In this document: positions 15,701-45,658 of the stretch, in pieces
Layout of the letters: the number at the start of each line of letters is the position of its first letter
Position numbering within the stretch: the first letter of the stretch is position 1
DNA from: a virus
Virus genome (UHGV): UHGV-0038498
DNA: 64,000 nt
Reading direction: 5' to 3' (one strand)
The notes under the pieces: generated by a model
Told to the model about the DNA's origin: nothing
The model's database searches: none
The model's input: only the letters and a program-made list of their open reading frames with translations
Position numbers and translations under genes: made by a program

Positions 15701-16621
15701 CGTTATGATACGTAAACGTGCTTTACTGTCCCCGTCAAATAATCTCCACAATTTCTCATTATCATCATACATCAAGAAACCGTCAATCGATGTACGGCCT
15801 TCAATGGAATGAGTTCCATCTTCTTGCACTGATGTCGTTTCATCATATGTAGTAACAATTGTATGATAAAGAGGGTTTAATTTATCCAAATCGACGAAAT
15901 TAATAATATCGCCGTGATTAGCAAATCTCGGAAGTTTAATATTTATCGGTGCAGCAGAAGTAAATCTACGTACGATAAAATCGTTGGATTGTGCTTGATA
16001 AGTATTCGCTGGTGTTACAACTACAGCTTCTCTACTATAATCAGCTACATACATTTGCCACAGACGATTACTAAAAATTAAAACTAACTGTGACTTTGGA
16101 TGAGTCATTAGTACTGAACGTACTTGCTCGCCTCTGAAGTTTACAATACTTTGCACTGGAGCTACAATTAAAACTTGGTTAACTCCAGGTTTTCCTCCAA
16201 TATCTTGGAGAACTATAGTATCACCGTCAATTGGGGTAGATGGTAAAGTAAATGTAATATCATTACCAGCTGCAGTGTTAACCGAAATAGCTTCACCGGA
16301 TTTTAATTGATATGAACCAGATGAGACTGTAATCCAGTTAGCATCGGTACGTAATGCTCTCCAGCGTCCGCTATTAAAAGGTCCTGCCGGTTTTGGAATA
16401 TCATTTATAGCAGCCCAAAAGCGGTTATCATAAATGATTACAAAATCTTTTAAATATCCACGAGTTGGATCGTATTGTTGAACTGTGTTTTCTTGAATTA
16501 GGTAATCAACGTTAACACCGTCAGTTCCTACGGCACGATCAGCTAAAGCTACGTTGATTATTTTATCGCCACCTGCGTCCAGACCATCTTCTGCTCTGAA
16601 CTTTCTTTTAATCTCGGCCAT
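12752..16621 (-). CDS. 34: long tail fibre proximal subunit gp34
   Basis: 1289-aa ORF (same length as T4 gp34), MAEIKRKFRAEDGLDAGGDKIINVALADRAVGTDG...; internal ~27-aa tail-fibre repeats. Confidence 0.9.
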   Translation of the reverse strand: MAEIKRKFRAEDGLDAGGDKIINVALADRAVGTDGVNVDYLIQENTVQQYDPTRGYLKDFVIIYDNRFWAAINDIPKPAGPFNSGRWRALRTDANWITVSSGSYQLKSGEAISVNTAAGNDITFTLPSTPIDGDTIVLQDIGGKPGVNQVLIVAPVQSIVNFRGEQVRSVLMTHPKSQLVLIFSNRLWQMYVADYSREAVVVTPANTYQAQSNDFIVRRFTSAAPINIKLPRFANHGDIINFVDLDKLNPLYHTIVTTYDETTSVQEDGTHSIEGRTSIDGFLMYDDNEKLWRLFDGDSKARLRIITTNSNIRPNEEVMVFGANNGTTQTIELQLPTNISVGDTVKISMNYMRKGQTVKIKAAGEDKIASSVQLLQFPKRSEYPPEAEWVTVQELVFNGETNYVPVLQLAYIEDSDGKYWVVQQNVPTVERVDSLNDSTRARLGVIALATQAQANVDLENSPQKELAITPETLANRTATETRRGIARIATTAQVNQNTTFSFADDIIITPKKLNERTATETRRGVAEIATQQETNAGTDDTTIITPKKLQARQGSESLSGIVTFVSTAGATPASSRELNGTNVYNKNTNNLVVSPKALDQYKATPTQQGAVILAVESEVIAGQSQEGWANAVVTPETLHKKTSTDGRIGLIEIATQSEVNTGTDYTRAVTPKTLNDRRATESLSGIAEIATQVEFDAGVDDTRISTPLKIKTRFNSTDRTSVVALSGLVESGTLWDHYTLNILEANETQRGTLRVATQVEAAAGTLDNVLITPKKLLGTKSTEAQEGVIKVATQSETVTGTSANTAVSPKNLKWIVQSEPTWAATTAIRGFVKTSSGSITFVGNDTVGSTQSLELYEKNSYAVSPYELNRVLANYLPLKAKAADTNLLDGLDSSQFIRRDIAQTVNGSLTLTQQTNLSAPLVSSSTATFGGSVSANSTLTISNTGTATRLIFEKGPQTGTNPVQTMTIRVWGNQFGGGSDTTRSTVFEVGDETSNHFYSQRNKAGNITFSINGTVMPINVNASGSLNANGVATFGSSVTANGEFISKSANAFRAINGDYGFFIRNDAANTYFMLTASGDQTGGFNGLRPLAINNASGQVTIGESLIIAKGATINSGGLTVNSRIRSQGTKTSDLYTRAPTSDTVGFWSIDINDSATYNQFPGYFKMVEKTNEVTGLPYLERGEEVKSPGTLTQFGNTLDSLYQDWITYPTTPEARTTRWTRTWQKTKNSWSSFVQVFDGGNPPQPSDIGALPSDNATMGNLTIRDFLRIGNVRIIPDPVNKSVKFEWIE

Positions 16622-19943: not shown

Positions 19944-20007
19944 ATTTCAAAATTTTTTCACAAAACGGTTTACATACCACAAGGACTGTGGTACTATACA
20001 ACTATCA
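19937..20007 (+). repeat. terminator-proximal early-promoter cassette, copy B
   Basis: Near-identical to 2568-2638; only the -35/-10 spacer differs. Confidence 0.7.
19968..19997 (+). promoter_or_regulatory. early promoter (copy of the motA-upstream cassette)
   Basis: GTTTAC at 19968-19973, TACTAT at 19992-19997; flanks near-identical to 2568-2638. Confidence 0.6.
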
Positions 20008-28127: not shown

Positions 28128-29715
<1,588 letters not shown>

Positions 29716-29718
29716 GCT

Positions 29719-29748
29719 GTTTACAAGTCCCTCGTGTTGTGTTACAGT
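29719..29748 (+). promoter_or_regulatory. early promoter in a promoter/stem-loop cassette upstream of alc
   Basis: GTTTAC at 29719-29724; candidate -10 TACAGT; long imperfect inverted repeat 29727-29773 spans the -10. Confidence 0.5.
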
Positions 29749-29772
29749 AGTCTTACTGACATAACATGAGGA
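29719..29772 (+). repeat. promoter/stem-loop cassette, copy 1
   Basis: 54 bp GTTTACAAGTCCCTCGTGTTGTGTTACAGTAGTCTTACTGACATAACATGAGGA, two mismatches versus copy 2. Confidence 0.75.
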
Positions 29773-29776
29773 CTTT

Positions 29777-30283
29777 ATGATGGATTTACAGCTTATTACT
29801 ACTGAAATGGTCGTTGAAGCATACGGTGATACCACGGATGGGATTTCTGTATTTAAAGGAAATCGTCGAGTTGGATATATCACCGATCTTAAGAAAGATT
29901 TAGCTAAGCAAGCAAAGCGGAAAACGACCATTAAAGAATATCGAAATCGTCGTCTTGAGCAAGCCCGTGATATGCTTCCCGATGCGGTTGAGGAGATGAA
30001 AGTCTTTTTAGAAAATCAGCTTGCGAAATATGATTGTGATGTGTTCATTAATCAGACTCAACCTAATGTTCATATTAATAACTGTAAATGCTATATCATC
30101 GTTAATCCTTTGACGGGAAAACATCGTCTTGGAATTAGTAATCCAAATCGTAGCGCATCGGATATGGCAGAAGATGTTGAGGCATGCTTTAAAATTTCTA
30201 AATCTCCTGCTGAACATCATATTTTAATTAACGGTCTTTCTCAAGACGATATTATAGAGGTTATTAAAACTTTATGCAATTAA
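29777..30283 (+). CDS. alc: Alc (inhibitor of host transcription on cytosine DNA)
   Basis: 168-aa ORF MMDLQLITTEMVVEAYGDTTDGISVFKGNRRVGYITD... matching T4 Alc as recalled. Confidence 0.8.
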   Translation: MMDLQLITTEMVVEAYGDTTDGISVFKGNRRVGYITDLKKDLAKQAKRKTTIKEYRNRRLEQARDMLPDAVEEMKVFLENQLAKYDCDVFINQTQPNVHINNCKCYIIVNPLTGKHRLGISNPNRSASDMAEDVEACFKISKSPAEHHILINGLSQDDIIEVIKTLCN

Positions 30284-33043: not shown

Positions 33044-33073
33044 GTTTACTTTACGGTAGAGTTGTGATATTAT
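33044..33073 (+). promoter_or_regulatory. early promoter with inverted repeat around the -10
   Basis: GTTTAC at 33044-33049, TATTAT at 33068-33073; arms GGTAGAG (33055-33061) and CTCTACC (33076-33082). Confidence 0.55.
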
Positions 33074-36438: not shown

Positions 36439-36468
36439 GTTTACAGTATAGTTCCTTTGTGATAGTAT
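36439..36468 (+). promoter_or_regulatory. early promoter
   Basis: GTTTAC at 36439-36444, TAGTAT at 36463-36468; imperfect inverted repeat flanks the -10. Confidence 0.55.
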
Positions 36469-36495
36469 TATCTTACACAAACAAAGGAGAATAAA

Positions 36496-36864
36496 ATGAA
36501 AATCAATCTTAACTCATACATCAAAGGTAAAGATCACGACGGCTATAAAGCTATCGAAACTAAAGAACTTCAGTGGCATTTATATAAAGAACAATTTGAA
36601 TTCGTAGATTGTATGACTCCTGAAGGTCCTTCTGATGATTTCTCTTGGAAAATAATGTTAACTAACTTTTTTACTGGAGATACATACGAATTAAAAACTT
36701 TGATTCTTGGTAAAATTCGCTGTGAGACTTATGAAGATAAAGAAACTGGTTACTCTGAAGATGTTACATGGTATCAAAATGGTCGTATTACCGCTGACCT
36801 CTTGATTGAAAAAATGAAAGCCAAAGGTGAATTAAATTTAGATAATTGGATTAAAGTTGCATAA
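36496..36864 (+). CDS. hypothetical protein (30.8-like position)
   Basis: 122-aa ORF with AAGGAG RBS. Confidence 0.55.
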   Translation: MKINLNSYIKGKDHDGYKAIETKELQWHLYKEQFEFVDCMTPEGPSDDFSWKIMLTNFFTGDTYELKTLILGKIRCETYEDKETGYSEDVTWYQNGRITADLLIEKMKAKGELNLDNWIKVA

Positions 36865-41095: not shown

Positions 41096-41103
41096 TATAA
41101 ATA
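41096..41103 (+). promoter_or_regulatory. late promoter (TATAAATA) for alt
   Basis: Exact TATAAATA 21 nt upstream of the alt ATG, right after the terminator. Confidence 0.65.
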
Positions 41104-41123: not shown

Positions 41124-43220
41124 ATGATGGAACTCATTACAGAATTATTTGACGAAGATACTACTCTTCCGATTACAAACTTAAATCCAAAGAAGAAAAT
41201 ACCGCAAATTTTTTCAGTTCATGTTGATGACGCAATTGAACAACCAGGATTTCGTTTATGTACCTATACATCTGGAGGTGATACTAATCGCGATTTAAAG
41301 ATGGGCGATAAAATGATGCATATTGTTCCTTTTACATTAACTGCTAAAGGTTCAATTGCTAAATTAAAAGGTCTCGGTCCAAGCCCAATTAATTATATCA
41401 ATTCAGTTTTTACTGTTGCGATGCAGACGATGCGTCAGTATAAAATTGATGCATGTATGCTCCGTATTCTTAAGTCTAAAACTGCTGGTCAAGCTCGTCA
41501 AATTCAACTTATTGCTGATAGACTTATCCGTAGTCGCTCAGGTGGCAGATACGTCCTTCTTAAGGAACTCTGGGATTACGATAAAAAGTATGCATATATT
41601 CTTATACATCGCAAAAATGTATCATTAGAAGACATTCCAGGAGTTCCTGAAATTAGTACCGAGCTCTTTACTAAAGTTGAATCGAAGGTCGGTGATGTTT
41701 ATATCAATAAAGATACTGGAGCTCAAGTAACTAAAAATGAGGCAATTGCAGCATCTATTGCGCAAGAAAACGATAAACGTTCTGACCAAGCTGTAATCGT
41801 TAAAGTTAAAATTTCCCGTAGAGCAATTGCACAAAGTCAGTCATTGGAATCTTCTAGATTTGAAAGTGAATTATTCCAGAAGTATGAATCTACTGCAGCT
41901 AATTTCAATAAACCTGCTACCGCTCCTTTAATTCCCGAAGCGGAAGAAATGAAACTTGGAATTAATTCACTAGCTTCTAAAACTAAGGCAGCAAAAATCA
42001 TTGCCGAAGGAACTGCAGATGAACTTCACTATGATTATAAATTCTTTTCAAAAAGTGAGGTTAATGAAGTTTCTGAAAAAATTAAAGATGTAATTCTTAA
42101 TGCGATTAAAAATGAACCAACTACTTCAATAAAATGTTTAGAGAAATACGCAGCAGCTATTAATAAATTCTTTGAAGAATACAAAGATACTTGGCTTGAT
42201 AAACATAATAAAACCCGTAAAGGACAGCCAGATGAAGTTTGGGAAGAAATAACTAAAAATTCCTGGAACGCAGCAAAAACTAAATTCCTCAAACGAATGA
42301 TTTATAGCTTTTCTGGAATTGGTGCAGGTCCAATGATTGATATTACTATTGCCCGTGATGGTTCGAAATATACTCCATCACAAAAGCGCGGCATTAGAGA
42401 GTATTGTGGTTCAGGATATACTGACATCAATAATCTTCTTTTAGGACGCTACAATCCAGAACGATATGATGTAATGAGTGAAAAAGAAATTGAATCTGCT
42501 ATAAATAACTTAGATTCAGCTTTTGAAAATGGTGACCGTATACCGGAAGGCATTACAGTTTATCGTGCTCAAAGTATGACTGCTCCTATATACGAAGCAT
42601 TAGTTAAAAATAAAGTGTTCTATTTCAGAAATTTTGTATCTACTTCTTTAACTCCTATCATTTTTGGACGTTTTGGAATTACACATGCTGGTATTGGTCT
42701 TTTAGAACCAGAAGCTCGTAATGAATTAACAGTTGATAAAAATGAAGAAGGAATAACTATTAATCCAAACGAAATAAGAGCGTATAAAGAAAATCCTGAA
42801 TACGTTAAAGTTCAAATAGGATGGGCAATTGATGGAGCTCATAAAGTTAATGTTGTATATCCAGGAAGTCTCGGAATAGCAACCGAAGCTGAAGTTATTC
42901 TACCACGCGGATTGATGGTCAAAGTTAATAAAATAACTGATGCTTCTAATAATGACGGAACAACATCTAATAATACAAAACTCATTCAAGCTGAAGTTAT
43001 GACTACGGAAGAACTCACCGAATCAGTAATTTATGACGGTGACCGTCTAATGGAAACCGGCGAAGTAGTTGCAATGACAGGTGATATTGAAATAGAAGAC
43101 AGAGTTGACTTTGCATCATTTGTTTCATCAAATGTTAAACAAAAAGTAGAATCATCTCTTGGAATTATTGCGTCTTGCATAGATATTACAAACATGCCTT
43201 ACAAGTTCGTTCAAGGATAA
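41124..43220 (+). CDS. alt: ADP-ribosyltransferase Alt (head-packaged)
   Basis: 698-aa ORF; N-terminus MELITELFD..., PGFRLCTYTSGGDTN, R-S-E candidates TVYRAQ / FVSTSL / EAEVILPRG; late promoter upstream. Confidence 0.85.
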   Translation: MMELITELFDEDTTLPITNLNPKKKIPQIFSVHVDDAIEQPGFRLCTYTSGGDTNRDLKMGDKMMHIVPFTLTAKGSIAKLKGLGPSPINYINSVFTVAMQTMRQYKIDACMLRILKSKTAGQARQIQLIADRLIRSRSGGRYVLLKELWDYDKKYAYILIHRKNVSLEDIPGVPEISTELFTKVESKVGDVYINKDTGAQVTKNEAIAASIAQENDKRSDQAVIVKVKISRRAIAQSQSLESSRFESELFQKYESTAANFNKPATAPLIPEAEEMKLGINSLASKTKAAKIIAEGTADELHYDYKFFSKSEVNEVSEKIKDVILNAIKNEPTTSIKCLEKYAAAINKFFEEYKDTWLDKHNKTRKGQPDEVWEEITKNSWNAAKTKFLKRMIYSFSGIGAGPMIDITIARDGSKYTPSQKRGIREYCGSGYTDINNLLLGRYNPERYDVMSEKEIESAINNLDSAFENGDRIPEGITVYRAQSMTAPIYEALVKNKVFYFRNFVSTSLTPIIFGRFGITHAGIGLLEPEARNELTVDKNEEGITINPNEIRAYKENPEYVKVQIGWAIDGAHKVNVVYPGSLGIATEAEVILPRGLMVKVNKITDASNNDGTTSNNTKLIQAEVMTTEELTESVIYDGDRLMETGEVVAMTGDIEIEDRVDFASFVSSNVKQKVESSLGIIASCIDITNMPYKFVQG

Positions 43221-43223
43221 ATC

Positions 43224-45281
43224 ATGGAACTTATTACAGAATTATTTGACGGCGCTTCGGCGCCGGTTGTTAACTTAAATCCTAAGCATAAAATACCTCA
43301 AATTTTTGCTATTCAAGCCGGCGAAGAAAGTGTGCTTCCTGGATTTAGATTTTGTACATACACCTCTGGCGGTGATACAAATAAAAACGTTAAGCCAGGC
43401 GATAAAATGATGCATATCGTAATGATAGGTGTTAATGAGAAACTATCATTAGTTAAACTTAAAAACTTGGGTGGAAATCCAATTGGTGTCATTAATGCCG
43501 TTTTTGATACTGCTCTTCAAACAATGAAACAGTATAAAATTGACGCATGCTTATTCCGCGTACTAAAAAGTAAAACAAATGGCGCAGCTCGTCAAATGCA
43601 AGTTATTGCTGACCGTTTAGTACGTACTAAAGGAGCAGGTCGATATGTTCTTTTAAAGGAAATCTGGGATTATGATAAAAAGTATGCATATATTATGGTT
43701 TACCGTAAAAATGCCAATTTAGAAGACATTCCAGGTGTACCTCCTATTTCAACTGAGTTATTCACAAAAGTTGAATCAAAGGTTGGTGATGTGTATGTAG
43801 ATGTTAAAACAGGTAATGCTGTTCCTAAAGCTGTTGCTGTTGCTGCTTCTATTGCCTTAGAAAATGATAAGCGCACGGATCAAGCTGTTATTCAGAAAAC
43901 TAAAATTAGTCGTCGATTAGCAGCGCAAGCTCAATATTCTACTGTCGATGCTTCACTACAGAGTGATAGCTTCGCTGCCAAGAAATATCAAGAGTTTGAA
44001 TCTAAAGTTCCGGTACATAAAGCAGAAGGACCAATGAACTCTGGCGTTATTCAGATTGGTTCAAACTTCGGCAAAGGAGCTATCGGTGGTATGAGAAGTG
44101 CTTCTCGTTTTAAATCTAACGATTATGAACTAGAAAGCTTCCGAAATCATATTGCATTGGCCCATGCACGTTTACGTGATCCATCTATCAAGCTGCAGAG
44201 CGATATAACATATCAAGGTTCTCAAGAATATTTAAAGAATAAAGAATTTTTTGATTATAAAACCGATAAAATTTTGAGCGATCTCGCTGACATTAATATT
44301 TCTAATAGCTTTGATGTTATTAAGAAAATTATCAATGATTTAGTTAAAGGTTCTAAAGCTACGCCAGACGAAAAGGTAGCTATTATTCAATTTGTCATGA
44401 ATGGCATTTATAAATTGATTAATGAATCTGCTGCCCAGGCGTATGAATACGCAAGCACCGAAGTAACTCCAAAAGGACTGACTCAGGCTGAGTCTGATGT
44501 AATTGAAGATTATTGTGCAGATTCATATGTTGAAATGAACTCGTTCCTCTTGGGTAAACCAGATTCTACCCGTGAAGAATACATGGAACGAGCTATTAAA
44601 CACATCGAGACAATGGATTCTGCCTTTGCCAAAGGTTCAGTTCTTCCTCCAGGAACTACGCTTTATCGTGGACAAGAAGTTACTTTTAAAACTTTACGCC
44701 ATAATATTGAAAATAAAATGTTCTATTTCAAGAACTTCGTATCAACATCGCTTAAACCAAATATCTTCGGTGAGCATGGTAAAAACTATATGGCTCTAGA
44801 TGATTCCGGCGCAGTATTTTCTGGTGAAGGAGAAGGTTCTGTTGATGCTGAAGATTTAATGCATATGGGTAGTCATTCTGCTTATGCGAATGAAGATGCT
44901 GAAACTAGCGTAGGTATGGTAATTAAAGGGGCTGAGCGAATCAAAGTTATCGTTCCAGGTCATTTATCAGGATTTCCATCAGAAGCTGAAGTTATTCTAC
45001 CGCGTGGAATTTTGTTGAAGATTAATAAAGTAAGCACGTACATGATGAAAGAAACTGCTTATAACAAGTATCTAATCGAAGGCACAATCGTTCCTCCTTC
45101 TGAACAATTAGAAGAATCGGTATATGATGGCGATCATCTAATGGAAACTGGTGAAGTTCGTCCAATGGCTGGGTTTAATCAATTCCTTGTAGAAGAATCA
45201 AAAGAAGAGGAAAACGAAGTTTCTCAAATCTTGGCTTCTTTGGTTAACATCAACGGAATGTCTAAAAAGTTCAAGATGTAG
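43224..45281 (+). CDS. second Alt-family ADP-ribosyltransferase paralogue
   Basis: 685-aa ORF 3 nt downstream of alt; N-terminal ~230 aa collinear with alt, catalytic motifs TLYRGQ / FVSTSL / EAEVILPRG retained, central region divergent. Confidence 0.8.
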   Translation: MELITELFDGASAPVVNLNPKHKIPQIFAIQAGEESVLPGFRFCTYTSGGDTNKNVKPGDKMMHIVMIGVNEKLSLVKLKNLGGNPIGVINAVFDTALQTMKQYKIDACLFRVLKSKTNGAARQMQVIADRLVRTKGAGRYVLLKEIWDYDKKYAYIMVYRKNANLEDIPGVPPISTELFTKVESKVGDVYVDVKTGNAVPKAVAVAASIALENDKRTDQAVIQKTKISRRLAAQAQYSTVDASLQSDSFAAKKYQEFESKVPVHKAEGPMNSGVIQIGSNFGKGAIGGMRSASRFKSNDYELESFRNHIALAHARLRDPSIKLQSDITYQGSQEYLKNKEFFDYKTDKILSDLADINISNSFDVIKKIINDLVKGSKATPDEKVAIIQFVMNGIYKLINESAAQAYEYASTEVTPKGLTQAESDVIEDYCADSYVEMNSFLLGKPDSTREEYMERAIKHIETMDSAFAKGSVLPPGTTLYRGQEVTFKTLRHNIENKMFYFKNFVSTSLKPNIFGEHGKNYMALDDSGAVFSGEGEGSVDAEDLMHMGSHSAYANEDAETSVGMVIKGAERIKVIVPGHLSGFPSEAEVILPRGILLKINKVSTYMMKETAYNKYLIEGTIVPPSEQLEESVYDGDHLMETGEVRPMAGFNQFLVEESKEEENEVSQILASLVNINGMSKKFKM

Positions 45282-45310
45282 TTTACAAGTCCCTCGTGTT
45301 GTGTTATAGT
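45281..45310 (+). promoter_or_regulatory. early promoter in a promoter/stem-loop cassette (second copy)
   Basis: GTTTAC at 45281-45286 (G shared with the upstream TAG); 54-bp near-identical copy of 29719-29772. Confidence 0.5.
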
Positions 45311-45334
45311 AGTTTTACTGACATAACATGAGGA
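45281..45334 (+). repeat. promoter/stem-loop cassette, copy 2
   Basis: 54 bp GTTTACAAGTCCCTCGTGTTGTGTTATAGTAGTTTTACTGACATAACATGAGGA. Confidence 0.75.
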
Positions 45335-45341
45335 ACACAAA

Positions 45342-45632
45342 ATGAAATCTTCTTTACGCTTTTTAGGTCAAGAACTTGTAGTTGAAGGCGTTATTCCTGC
45401 TGATAACGCTTTTAATGAAGCAGTTTATGATGAATTTATCAAAATTTTTGGAACAGATAAAAAGTTCGGAATTTTTCCTTCTGAAAATTTTTCAAAGCCA
45501 GAGCAGACTGAAAGCATTTTCCAAGGTGTAGTAACAGGTAAATTTGAGTCAGAAGCTCCGGTAAAAATTGAAGTTTACATTGAAGACAGTTTAGTTGCTT
45601 CAGTTGCTGCTTTTATTTCATTCCGTAAATAA
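45342..45632 (+). CDS. hypothetical protein
   Basis: 96-aa ORF between the promoter cassette and a bidirectional terminator. Confidence 0.5.
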   Translation: MKSSLRFLGQELVVEGVIPADNAFNEAVYDEFIKIFGTDKKFGIFPSENFSKPEQTESIFQGVVTGKFESEAPVKIEVYIEDSLVASVAAFISFRK

Positions 45633-45636
45633 AAAT

Positions 45637-45658
45637 ATGGGGACCTTTCGGTCCCCAT
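45637..45658. terminator. bidirectional terminator hairpin between convergent genes
   Basis: Palindrome ATGGGGACC-tttc-GGTCCCCAT between the + strand ORF end (45632) and gene 54 end (45661). Confidence 0.65.

Follow-up and report, generated by a model that had tools for sequence, protein, structure and literature searches.

A duplicated early-promoter cassette upstream of alc and alt.-3 in a T4-like phage genome and its probable role as a translational gate

UHGV virus genome UHGV-0038498 was analyzed as a stretch of 64,000 nucleotides (the window), which is a segment of a Tequatrovirus (T4-like) genome oriented with its early genes. The window carries two copies of a 54-bp cassette, one upstream of alc and one upstream of a homologue of alt.-3, and each combines an early promoter with an RNA hairpin that reaches into the Shine-Dalgarno (SD) sequence of the downstream gene. 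The best-supported function of this cassette is translational gating, over termination of transcription or gene shuffling: the cassette probably (roughly 60%) acts as a translational gate set by where a transcript began. This reading builds on the observed sequence anatomy, the match to the promoter consensus, the conservation and covariation of the hairpin and a computed difference in SD accessibility, from which an effect on translation in vivo would follow.

Under the proposed mechanism, RNA initiated at the cassette’s own promoter would start inside the hairpin and lack its 5' arm, leaving the ribosome-binding site open. RNA arriving from upstream would contain both arms and fold so that the SD is hidden. 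The sources of such read-through RNA would be the nrd/denA/rnlA units at the first copy and the late-transcribed alt genes at the second. The immediate-early transcripts of the cassettes would then be the source of Alc and Alt.-3, and the longer middle or late transcripts, which serve the upstream genes, would not.

Two copies of an early-promoter cassette

The two copies are located as follows.

29719..29772, + strand: cassette copy A, 54 bp, in the gap from the rnlA stop codon to alc; found at this site in T4 too, and in about 500 Tequatrovirus records
45281..45334, + strand: cassette copy B, 54 bp, following the second alt paralogue's stop and preceding the alt.-3 homologue; also present in T4

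The original prediction described 54-bp copies with only two differences, lying upstream of alc and downstream of a second alt gene, and both the count and the gene assignments are borne out. The 2 differing bases out of 54 are both C/T, one at the third base of the -10 hexamer (29745/45307) and the other in the hairpin loop (29752/45314), and the similarity between the copies ends abruptly at both edges. The flanking DNA is 95-99% identical to many T4-like phages. A further claim, that GTTTAC lies exactly at or overlaps the upstream stop codon, is accurate for copy B, where the second alt paralogue's TAG stop (45279-45281) supplies the first G as its last base, but is slightly loose for copy A, which begins 3 nt past the rnlA stop TAA (29713-29715). 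At copy A the gene order is rnlA (gene 63) followed by alc. At copy B the second of two tandem alt paralogues is followed by the alt.-3 homologue, a bidirectional terminator and the convergent gene 54. PHROGs gives no function for Alt.-3 (phrog_1739).

A search for further copies, which had been proposed as a check, returns near-identical sequences at only two loci per genome: BLASTN places the cassette at 999 sites in 500 phage records, and T4 itself carries copies A and B. No third copy is present in the window at up to three mismatches, and 100 shuffles yield 0 matches. The window contains 11 early-type promoters (GTTTAC-N16/17-TAnnnT), every one on the + strand, which is the early-gene strand. 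Stem-loops across the -10 element are common in this set, so promoters with stem-loops form a loose family here, and the exact cassette sequence occurs only twice per genome. Among the 11, the A/B pair shares 52 of 54 positions, compared with 35/54 for the next-best pair and a median of 25/54, so the identity of the two copies is far above that given by a shared promoter consensus alone. No Rfam 15 covariance model has a match overlapping either cassette, even at E-values up to 1.

The promoter elements of each copy are listed below, with the starts placed by consensus geometry.

29719..29724, + strand: -35 element of copy A, GTTTAC, the T4 early-promoter form; sigma-70 hexamer TTTACA at 29720-29725
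29740..29748, + strand: extended -10 element of copy A, with TG at 29740-29741, one base, then TACAGT at 29743-29748; 17-nt spacer
29755, + strand: predicted transcription start of copy A, an A 7 nt past the -10 element and at the start of the hairpin 3' arm
45281..45286, + strand: -35 element of copy B, GTTTAC, its G being the last base of the TAG stop
45302..45310, + strand: extended -10 element of copy B, with TG at 45302-45303, one base, then TATAGT at 45305-45310; 10/12 matches
45317, + strand: predicted transcription start of copy B, an A

Each copy is very probably a T4-type early (sigma-70) promoter, which would fire at the predicted +1. Read as sigma-70 promoters, both have the form TTTACA-N17-TAYAGT with a TGn extended -10 element; T4 has TATAGT where copy A has TACAGT. 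GTTTAC falls at -36 to -31 and TAYAGT at -12 to -7, the same positions as in the T4 early-promoter consensus (as cited in PMC9161530). By arithmetic, the predicted starts correspond to approximately T4 136,300 and 123,057 on the minus strand. With respect to an A-rich UP element near -42 and -52, AAAAA stands at about -53 to -49 in copy B, and the corresponding DNA of copy A is coding sequence without an evident A-tract. One relative’s record annotates the cassette site as a predicted early promoter, and time-resolved omics of T4 (PMC9697503 supplement) class alc and alt.-3 as early RNA and early protein.

A hairpin that includes the Shine-Dalgarno sequence

The hairpins and the SD sequences within them are as follows.

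29725..29775, + strand: RNA hairpin A, 22 bp, with the 5' arm at 29725-29749, the loop at 29750-29753 and the 3' arm at 29754-29775
45289..45336, + strand: RNA hairpin B, 20 bp, with 3 G.U pairs
29768..29772, + strand: alc SD, GAGGA, all paired in read-through RNA; start codons at 29777 and 29780
45330..45334, + strand: alt.-3 SD, GAGGA, with GAGG all paired in read-through RNA; start codon at 45342

The 5' arm of hairpin A is formed by the promoter spacer and the -10 element, with the anti-SD segment at 29728-29733. In cassette coordinates, the 5' arm occupies positions 7-31 and the predicted +1 is position 37, and the 3' arm begins at about +1 and terminates in the downstream GAGGA. Since the 5' arm lies upstream of the predicted +1, both arms are present only in RNA from upstream. 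The inverted repeat had been described as about 18 bp long, spanning the -10 region and containing several G-T pairs. It is real, spans the -10 element and has 2-3 G.U pairs per hairpin, but it is longer than stated at 22 and 20 bp, and its extension into the SD of the downstream gene is a feature absent from that description.

The folding energy is -25.7 kcal/mol for hairpin A (z-score -5.4 relative to dinucleotide shuffles) and -23.0 kcal/mol for hairpin B (z-score -4.8). Both folds are unchanged in 160-510 nt of context, where the probability that the SD is unpaired in read-through RNA is approximately 0. The computed energy required to open the SD is 7.8-11.5 kcal/mol in read-through RNA versus 0.9-3.7 kcal/mol in the own-promoter transcript, and opening the region from the SD through the AUG requires 10.6-13.2 versus 1.9-4.2 kcal/mol. 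The unpaired probability of the SD in the own-promoter transcript is variable.

Conservation was evaluated by comparing the alc-upstream regions of annotated phages from seven other genera and of 38 viral contigs. The gap between rnlA and alc is about 55-65 bp nearly everywhere and opens with GTTTACA directly past the stop codon. Of 31 distinct alc-proximal cassettes, 23 have their SD paired with the segment that immediately follows the -35 hexamer (cassette positions 8-14), at an unpaired probability of at most 0.25 (0.00 in 20 of the 23). These masking cassettes come from Tequatro-, Gelderland-, Karam-, Jiaoda-, Dhaka- and Winklervirus and from unnamed lineages. Their stem sequences vary by lineage (e.g. 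TCTCCATTTGGTTG/TAACCAAATGGAGA, TCCTCATCAG/CTGATGAGGA and AACCTCTCATTTTTA/TGAAAATGAGAGGTT), and the contiguous pairing of a 5' arm averages 12.0 bp (-20.2 kcal/mol) with the 3' arm of its own cassette, compared with 6.6 bp and -10.5 kcal/mol with the 3' arms of other lineages. The formal count of pairs uses 17 distinct sequences in one alignment (A5), in which 91.2% of cells are paired versus 35-51% when the partners are slid by 1-3 columns. Both-sided, compensatory changes are found in 10 of 14 pairs, and the covariation score of 0.557 (0.07-0.20 with slid partners) is reached by 0 of 500 shuffles. A plain MAFFT alignment of whole cassettes (A3) leaves the 3' arms out of register, and an alignment including Dhakavirus (A4) was discarded because a gap broke the pairing register; Dhakavirus is covered by the alignment-free arm test. 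The hairpin is very probably a conserved structure, and at the alc site it is old and maintained by compensatory change.

Two other explanations bear directly on these structural data. It is highly improbable that the repeat is a DNA-level palindrome, acting as a protein-binding site or as a cruciform or open-complex modulator that tunes the promoter, with the RNA fold incidental. Such a palindrome would accord with the -10-spanning inverted repeats that do not involve the SD at other early promoters (20694, 33044, 36869 and 16139) and with the stems found outside Tequatrovirus, which are Watson-Crick and equally stable on both strands. Against it, the 2-3 G.U pairs of Tequatrovirus would be mismatches in DNA and give the sense RNA an advantage of 6-9 kcal/mol in stability over the antisense, and the 3' arm consistently ends at the SD instead of lying symmetrically about the -10 element. 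Strand asymmetry was rejected as a general argument for an RNA-level function, as the sense strand is clearly more stable only in Tequatrovirus (11/24 overall).

The stem could also serve RNA processing or stability, with RNase III cleaving the duplex of about 20 bp in read-through RNA or the hairpin shielding the 3' ends of the processed rnlA and alt mRNAs, so that upstream and downstream messages would be separated, although this is rather improbable. The nearly continuous stem of 20-22 bp is within the size range of RNase III substrates, and the hairpin is located exactly at the gene boundary between temporal classes. The helix has only 9-15 contiguous bp in other genera, however, which is short for RNase III, and the invariant feature is the inclusion of the SD, which a processing model does not predict. 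No literature support for processing was found.

Transcription context and exchange between the two loci

Both cassettes lie at a junction from a late-needed gene to an early-made gene on the same strand, with no terminator. In T4, alt is classed as middle RNA and late protein and rnlA as early RNA and late protein (PMC9697503 supplement), and this pairing of late upstream proteins (rnlA, alt) with early downstream proteins (Alc, Alt.-3) counts in favor of the gate. The mapped T4 middle promoters PnrdB and PI-TevIII are upstream of rnlA on the same strand, with none closer (PMC2988021, Table 1). In the window, a late-promoter motif precedes the first alt gene, and no terminator is found between this motif and copy B.

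41096..41103, + strand: late-promoter motif TATAAATA, 28 nt before the first alt gene; a likely source of late read-through RNA into copy B
45637..45658, both strands: probable bidirectional intrinsic terminator, ending the alt.-3 unit before the convergent gene 54

The same arrangement bears on translational coupling, in which ribosomes that finish the upstream gene, whose stop codon precedes the 5' arm by 0-9 nt, would melt the base of the stem and briefly expose the SD, so that alc and alt.-3 on read-through RNA would be translated only in proportion to translation of the upstream gene. In nearly all lineages GTTTAC touches or overlaps the stop codon, and the T4 alt.-2 frame enters copy B and ends at 123065, inside the 5' arm, both of which suit coupling. 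It is nevertheless very unlikely: the anti-SD segment starts 13 nt (copy A) or 9 nt (copy B) past the stop, which is at the limit of what a terminating ribosome usually covers or outside it, a 20-bp stem would soon close again, and late upstream proteins with early downstream proteins in T4 are the opposite of coupled expression.

The original prediction matched the cassettes to the promoter-early stem-loop (PeSL) cassettes of T4-type phages. A PeSL is described as an early sigma-70-like promoter with a stem-loop, located between a stop codon and the SD and start codon (Arbiol et al. 2010, PMC2839356). In PeSL proper the stem-loop would terminate or attenuate upstream transcription, the promoter would restart it and the cassette would be a portable recombination site that shuffles its neighbors. 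The match stands for the descriptive anatomy, a promoter plus stem-loop between the stop and the SD and start, and for a cassette that seems to have moved, but not for termination or gene shuffling. A PeSL stem-loop of RB49 cut lacZ expression as much as a strong terminator (PMC2839356), and the exchange of cassette sequence between alc and alt.-3 in Tequatrovirus and the identical 3' 32 nt of VR5 (both described below) also suit this explanation, as does the extra open reading frame (ORF) that Gaprivervirus carries exactly at the rnlA-alc junction. However, no T-run follows the alc-site hairpin in any lineage examined. The hairpins are flanked on the 3' side by CUUUAUG (copy A) and ACACAAAAUG (copy B), neither of which has the U-run of an intrinsic terminator, and a consensus terminator scan finds neither cassette terminator-like while detecting the true terminator 300 bp downstream. 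That terminator (45637-45658) has a GC-rich stem of 9 bp without mismatches, ATGGGGACC-TTTC-GGTCCCCAT, and its T-runs are stronger on the minus than on the plus strand.

The stems of the cassettes are also not of the G/C-tract type of RB49, and recombination between the only two near-identical copies would delete 15.5 kb including ligase, pseT, cd and gene 31. The covariation keeps SD pairing specifically, which a generic terminator would not need. The proposed modular shuffling finds no support here: no gene shuffling is seen at either site, and the sole rearrangement beside copy B uses 9-bp repeats outside the cassette. PeSL proper is thus unlikely as an explanation. Confinement of the near-identical repeats to two loci, with no structural conservation in relatives, had been named as evidence against a PeSL; the repeats are indeed confined to two loci, yet the structure is strongly conserved in relatives.

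The rearrangement beside copy B involves the alt genes. In the window, two alt paralogues of full length lie in tandem (41124-43220 and 43224-45281), and the alt.-1/alt.-2 remnant of T4 (L003 5566-5951) is a 1.7-kb internal deletion of the second, flanked by the 9-bp repeats CTAAAAAGT at 43562-43570 and 45262-45270. About 100 of 500 related records have the T4-type alt.-1/alt.-2 arrangement. A cassette-mediated origin of this deletion was considered and rejected, since the CTAAAAAGT repeats are 11-19 bp outside the cassette. As annotated in T4, the deletion-shifted alt.-2 frame enters copy B by about 28 nt and stops in the 5' arm (T4 123065-123093; L003 5566-5594), and ribosomes on alt.-2 could open hairpin B in T4 and not in the window phage. 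Separately, the Gaprivervirus ORF (VR7 group; L007 86-400, L158, L159 and L184) encodes 77 amino acids resembling the N-terminal part of Alc and is located between rnlA and alc. Ahead of this ORF, the place of the GTTTAC cassette is taken by a terminator-like, GC-rich hairpin (GGGGTG...GCCCC) followed by a T-rich run. PHROGs has a separate family, phrog_17715, for short Alc-like proteins.

The history of the second copy was evaluated by pairing the alc and alt.-3 cassettes of each genome through gp54-anchored loci; the Alt.-3 protein alignment is too divergent to seed a locus scan, and the C-terminus of gp54 was used in its place. The alt.-3 sites of six genomes (Dhaka-, Karam-, Gelderland-, Mosig-, Marfa- and Kanagawavirus) have GTTTACA-N17-TAnnnT directly past the alt stop, with a short spacer-internal hairpin (e.g. 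CACCACA-AGGA-TGTGGT) and an unpaired SD. The two cassettes of a genome are identical at 50-54 of 54 positions in three Tequatrovirus genomes and at 19-34 of 54 in 23 genomes of other genera, the latter being ordinary promoter-to-promoter similarity. The hairpin comparisons at both loci indicate that the long SD-masking hairpin is ancestral at alc and Tequatrovirus-specific at alt.-3, and the alc cassette was probably copied onto the resident alt.-3 promoter in the Tequatrovirus ancestor. The -35 motif and the SD motif are the exact ends of the homology tract, and the alt.-3 promoters of other genera already share these ends (that of RB69 begins GTTTACAAG and ends AACATGAGGAA). In the Dhakavirus VR5 (L010 355-403 versus L012 355-403) the 3' 32 nt (ACCTTACACAAACATGAGGAGAACATTATGAA) are identical at alc and alt.-3 while the spacers differ; at alc, the 3' half is different in other Dhakavirus genomes. 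The pattern resembles a partial conversion between the two loci in a second genus.

Exact 17-mer scans of viral and metagenome contigs return mostly chance matches, along with 21 true cassettes (11 at alc and 10 at alt.-3). alc and alt.-3 have their most frequent haplotype in common, the two cassettes of one genome differ by 0-2 nt and no difference is fixed by site; C27 is found at alc only and G32A at both loci. These data fit homogenization or strong constraint, with a sample too small to separate them. A Tequatrovirus copy B variant (L187, IMGVR_UViG_2974787500_000001) has C12A, which weakens the anti-SD segment, G29A, which gives a perfect TATAAT, and G32A. The exact-pattern scans missed this variant, so the population sample is biased toward intact 5' arms. 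At alt.-3 of a Winklervirus (L205), the SD pairs with a short segment between the -10 element and +1 (GTTCCT with GAGGAAC), a type of pairing present in some non-Tequatrovirus genera that is an alternative way to mask the SD only in read-through RNA.

Several points weigh against the gate as a translational control. No 5'-end map or translation assay for either site was found in the literature that was accessible, so promoter activity and masking are predictions. In the own transcript of copy B, weak pairing of the SD with coding sequence remains (3-4 kcal/mol). The SD is unmasked in 8 of the 31 alc-proximal cassettes (Mosigvirus and others; unpaired probability 0.26-0.85), so the gate is not indispensable; these exceptions, in Mosigvirus and a few lineages, have a short spacer-internal hairpin or a -10-spanning hairpin that leaves the SD free. 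Because rnlA RNA is early in T4, read-through is not confined to late times. The 3' arms in alignment A5 are anchored by one fitted offset per sequence, which favors structure somewhat, though the slid controls argue against this bias being the main effect. Outside Tequatrovirus, the covariation fits a DNA-level or antisense palindrome equally well. Finally, copying from alc to alt.-3 is the simplest reading of the direction, with parsimony as its sole basis.

Wider meaning and comparison with known systems

A third early-type promoter in the window, at 36439-36498 (GTTTACA-N17-TAGTAT), has the logic of the alc cassette in an unrelated sequence. Its spacer segment TTCCTTTGTG pairs with the SD region CAAAGGAG of a 30.8 homologue (ATG at 36496), and the SD unpaired probability is 0.01 in read-through RNA versus 0.99 in its own transcript. 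Other GTTTAC promoters (first G at 16139, 19968, 20694, 33044 and 36869) have inverted repeats that do not involve the SD. The repeats at 33044 (GGTAGAG...CTCTACC) and 36869 (GGTACAGG...CCTGTACC) span the -10 element, and that at 19968 (CCACA-AGGAC-TGTGG) is internal to the spacer.

It is a tentative and somewhat doubtful extension that anti-SD hairpins in early promoters are a general, as yet unlisted device of T4-like phages that restricts the synthesis of selected early proteins (among them Alc, Alt.-3 and gp30.8) to the opening minutes of infection, with the module spreading by conversion between shared -35 and SD motifs. If so, these proteins would not be translated from read-through RNA at later times. 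That early protein synthesis still shuts off without ModA or AsiA is described as unexplained (Hinton review, PMC2988021), and anti-SD hairpins would help explain it. If the gate model is right, the cassette itself makes a testable contribution to the shut-off of T4 early proteins, which is partly unexplained in the literature. It would also be a compact insulator between same-strand genes of different temporal class that needs no terminator, as a single 54-bp element would both initiate the early mRNA of a gene and keep that gene silent on all longer mRNAs. In that case a second, RNA-level code, kept by compensatory evolution across genera, could reside in a strong promoter's spacer, and the cassette could be used in phage engineering as a part that makes expression dependent on transcript origin.

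Compared with the T4 early-promoter (Pe) class (Hinton 2010, PMC2988021), the cassettes share GTTTAC at -36 to -31, the TGn, a TAnnnT -10 element, the early strand and early downstream genes. They differ in that coding sequence of the gene before them takes up most of the A-rich UP region and that the -10 hexamers TACAGT and TATAGT depart from TATAAT. The embedded hairpin is their defining extra.

The likeness to PeSL cassettes lies in a compact intergenic early promoter with a stem-loop, bounded by a stop codon and the SD and ATG, in the G-T pairs of the stems and in the exchange of cassette sequence between loci. The PeSL promoter consensus of T4 and PST is TTTACW-N17-TAYWAT (Comeau et al. 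2014, PMC4122927), which the cassette promoter matches at all but one position (TAYAGT versus TAYWAT). The T4/PST stem-loops, however, are just upstream of the promoter (PMC4122927), whereas the cassette hairpin spans the -10 element, +1 and the SD. The cassettes also lack terminator features, have only two near-identical copies and show no cassette-mediated gene insertion or deletion, and their selected feature, SD pairing, is outside the PeSL concept. That concept is refined in that some promoter and stem-loop cassettes appear to be kept for translational gating and not for termination or recombination.

The closest known design occurs in the T4 genes e, soc, 49 and I-TevI, where a helix with its 5' strand located at, or upstream of, a promoter close to the gene holds the SD. 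Long transcripts of these genes fold and are poorly translated, and short ones without the 5' strand are translated, as is predicted for the cassettes; for gene e, SD masking has an effect of about 100-fold (PMC3014915). The design is conserved in related phages, as it is at the alc site. Neither alc nor alt.-3 is among the SD-masking cases listed in PMC3014915, and no earlier description of the cassette hairpin was found in the accessible literature, a search that did not include the main T4 genome review. The difference is in the embedded promoter, which is late (TATAAATA) in e, soc, 49 and I-TevI, where the gate delays expression, and early sigma-70 in the cassettes, where the anti-SD segment is in the spacer between the -35 and -10 elements and the predicted outcome is to confine expression to the early transcript. 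The cassettes are a variant of the T4 SD-masking design that falls outside the e/soc/49/I-TevI set because the embedded promoter is early. As the design is already known from those genes, this mirror-image, early-promoter version is interesting rather than surprising.

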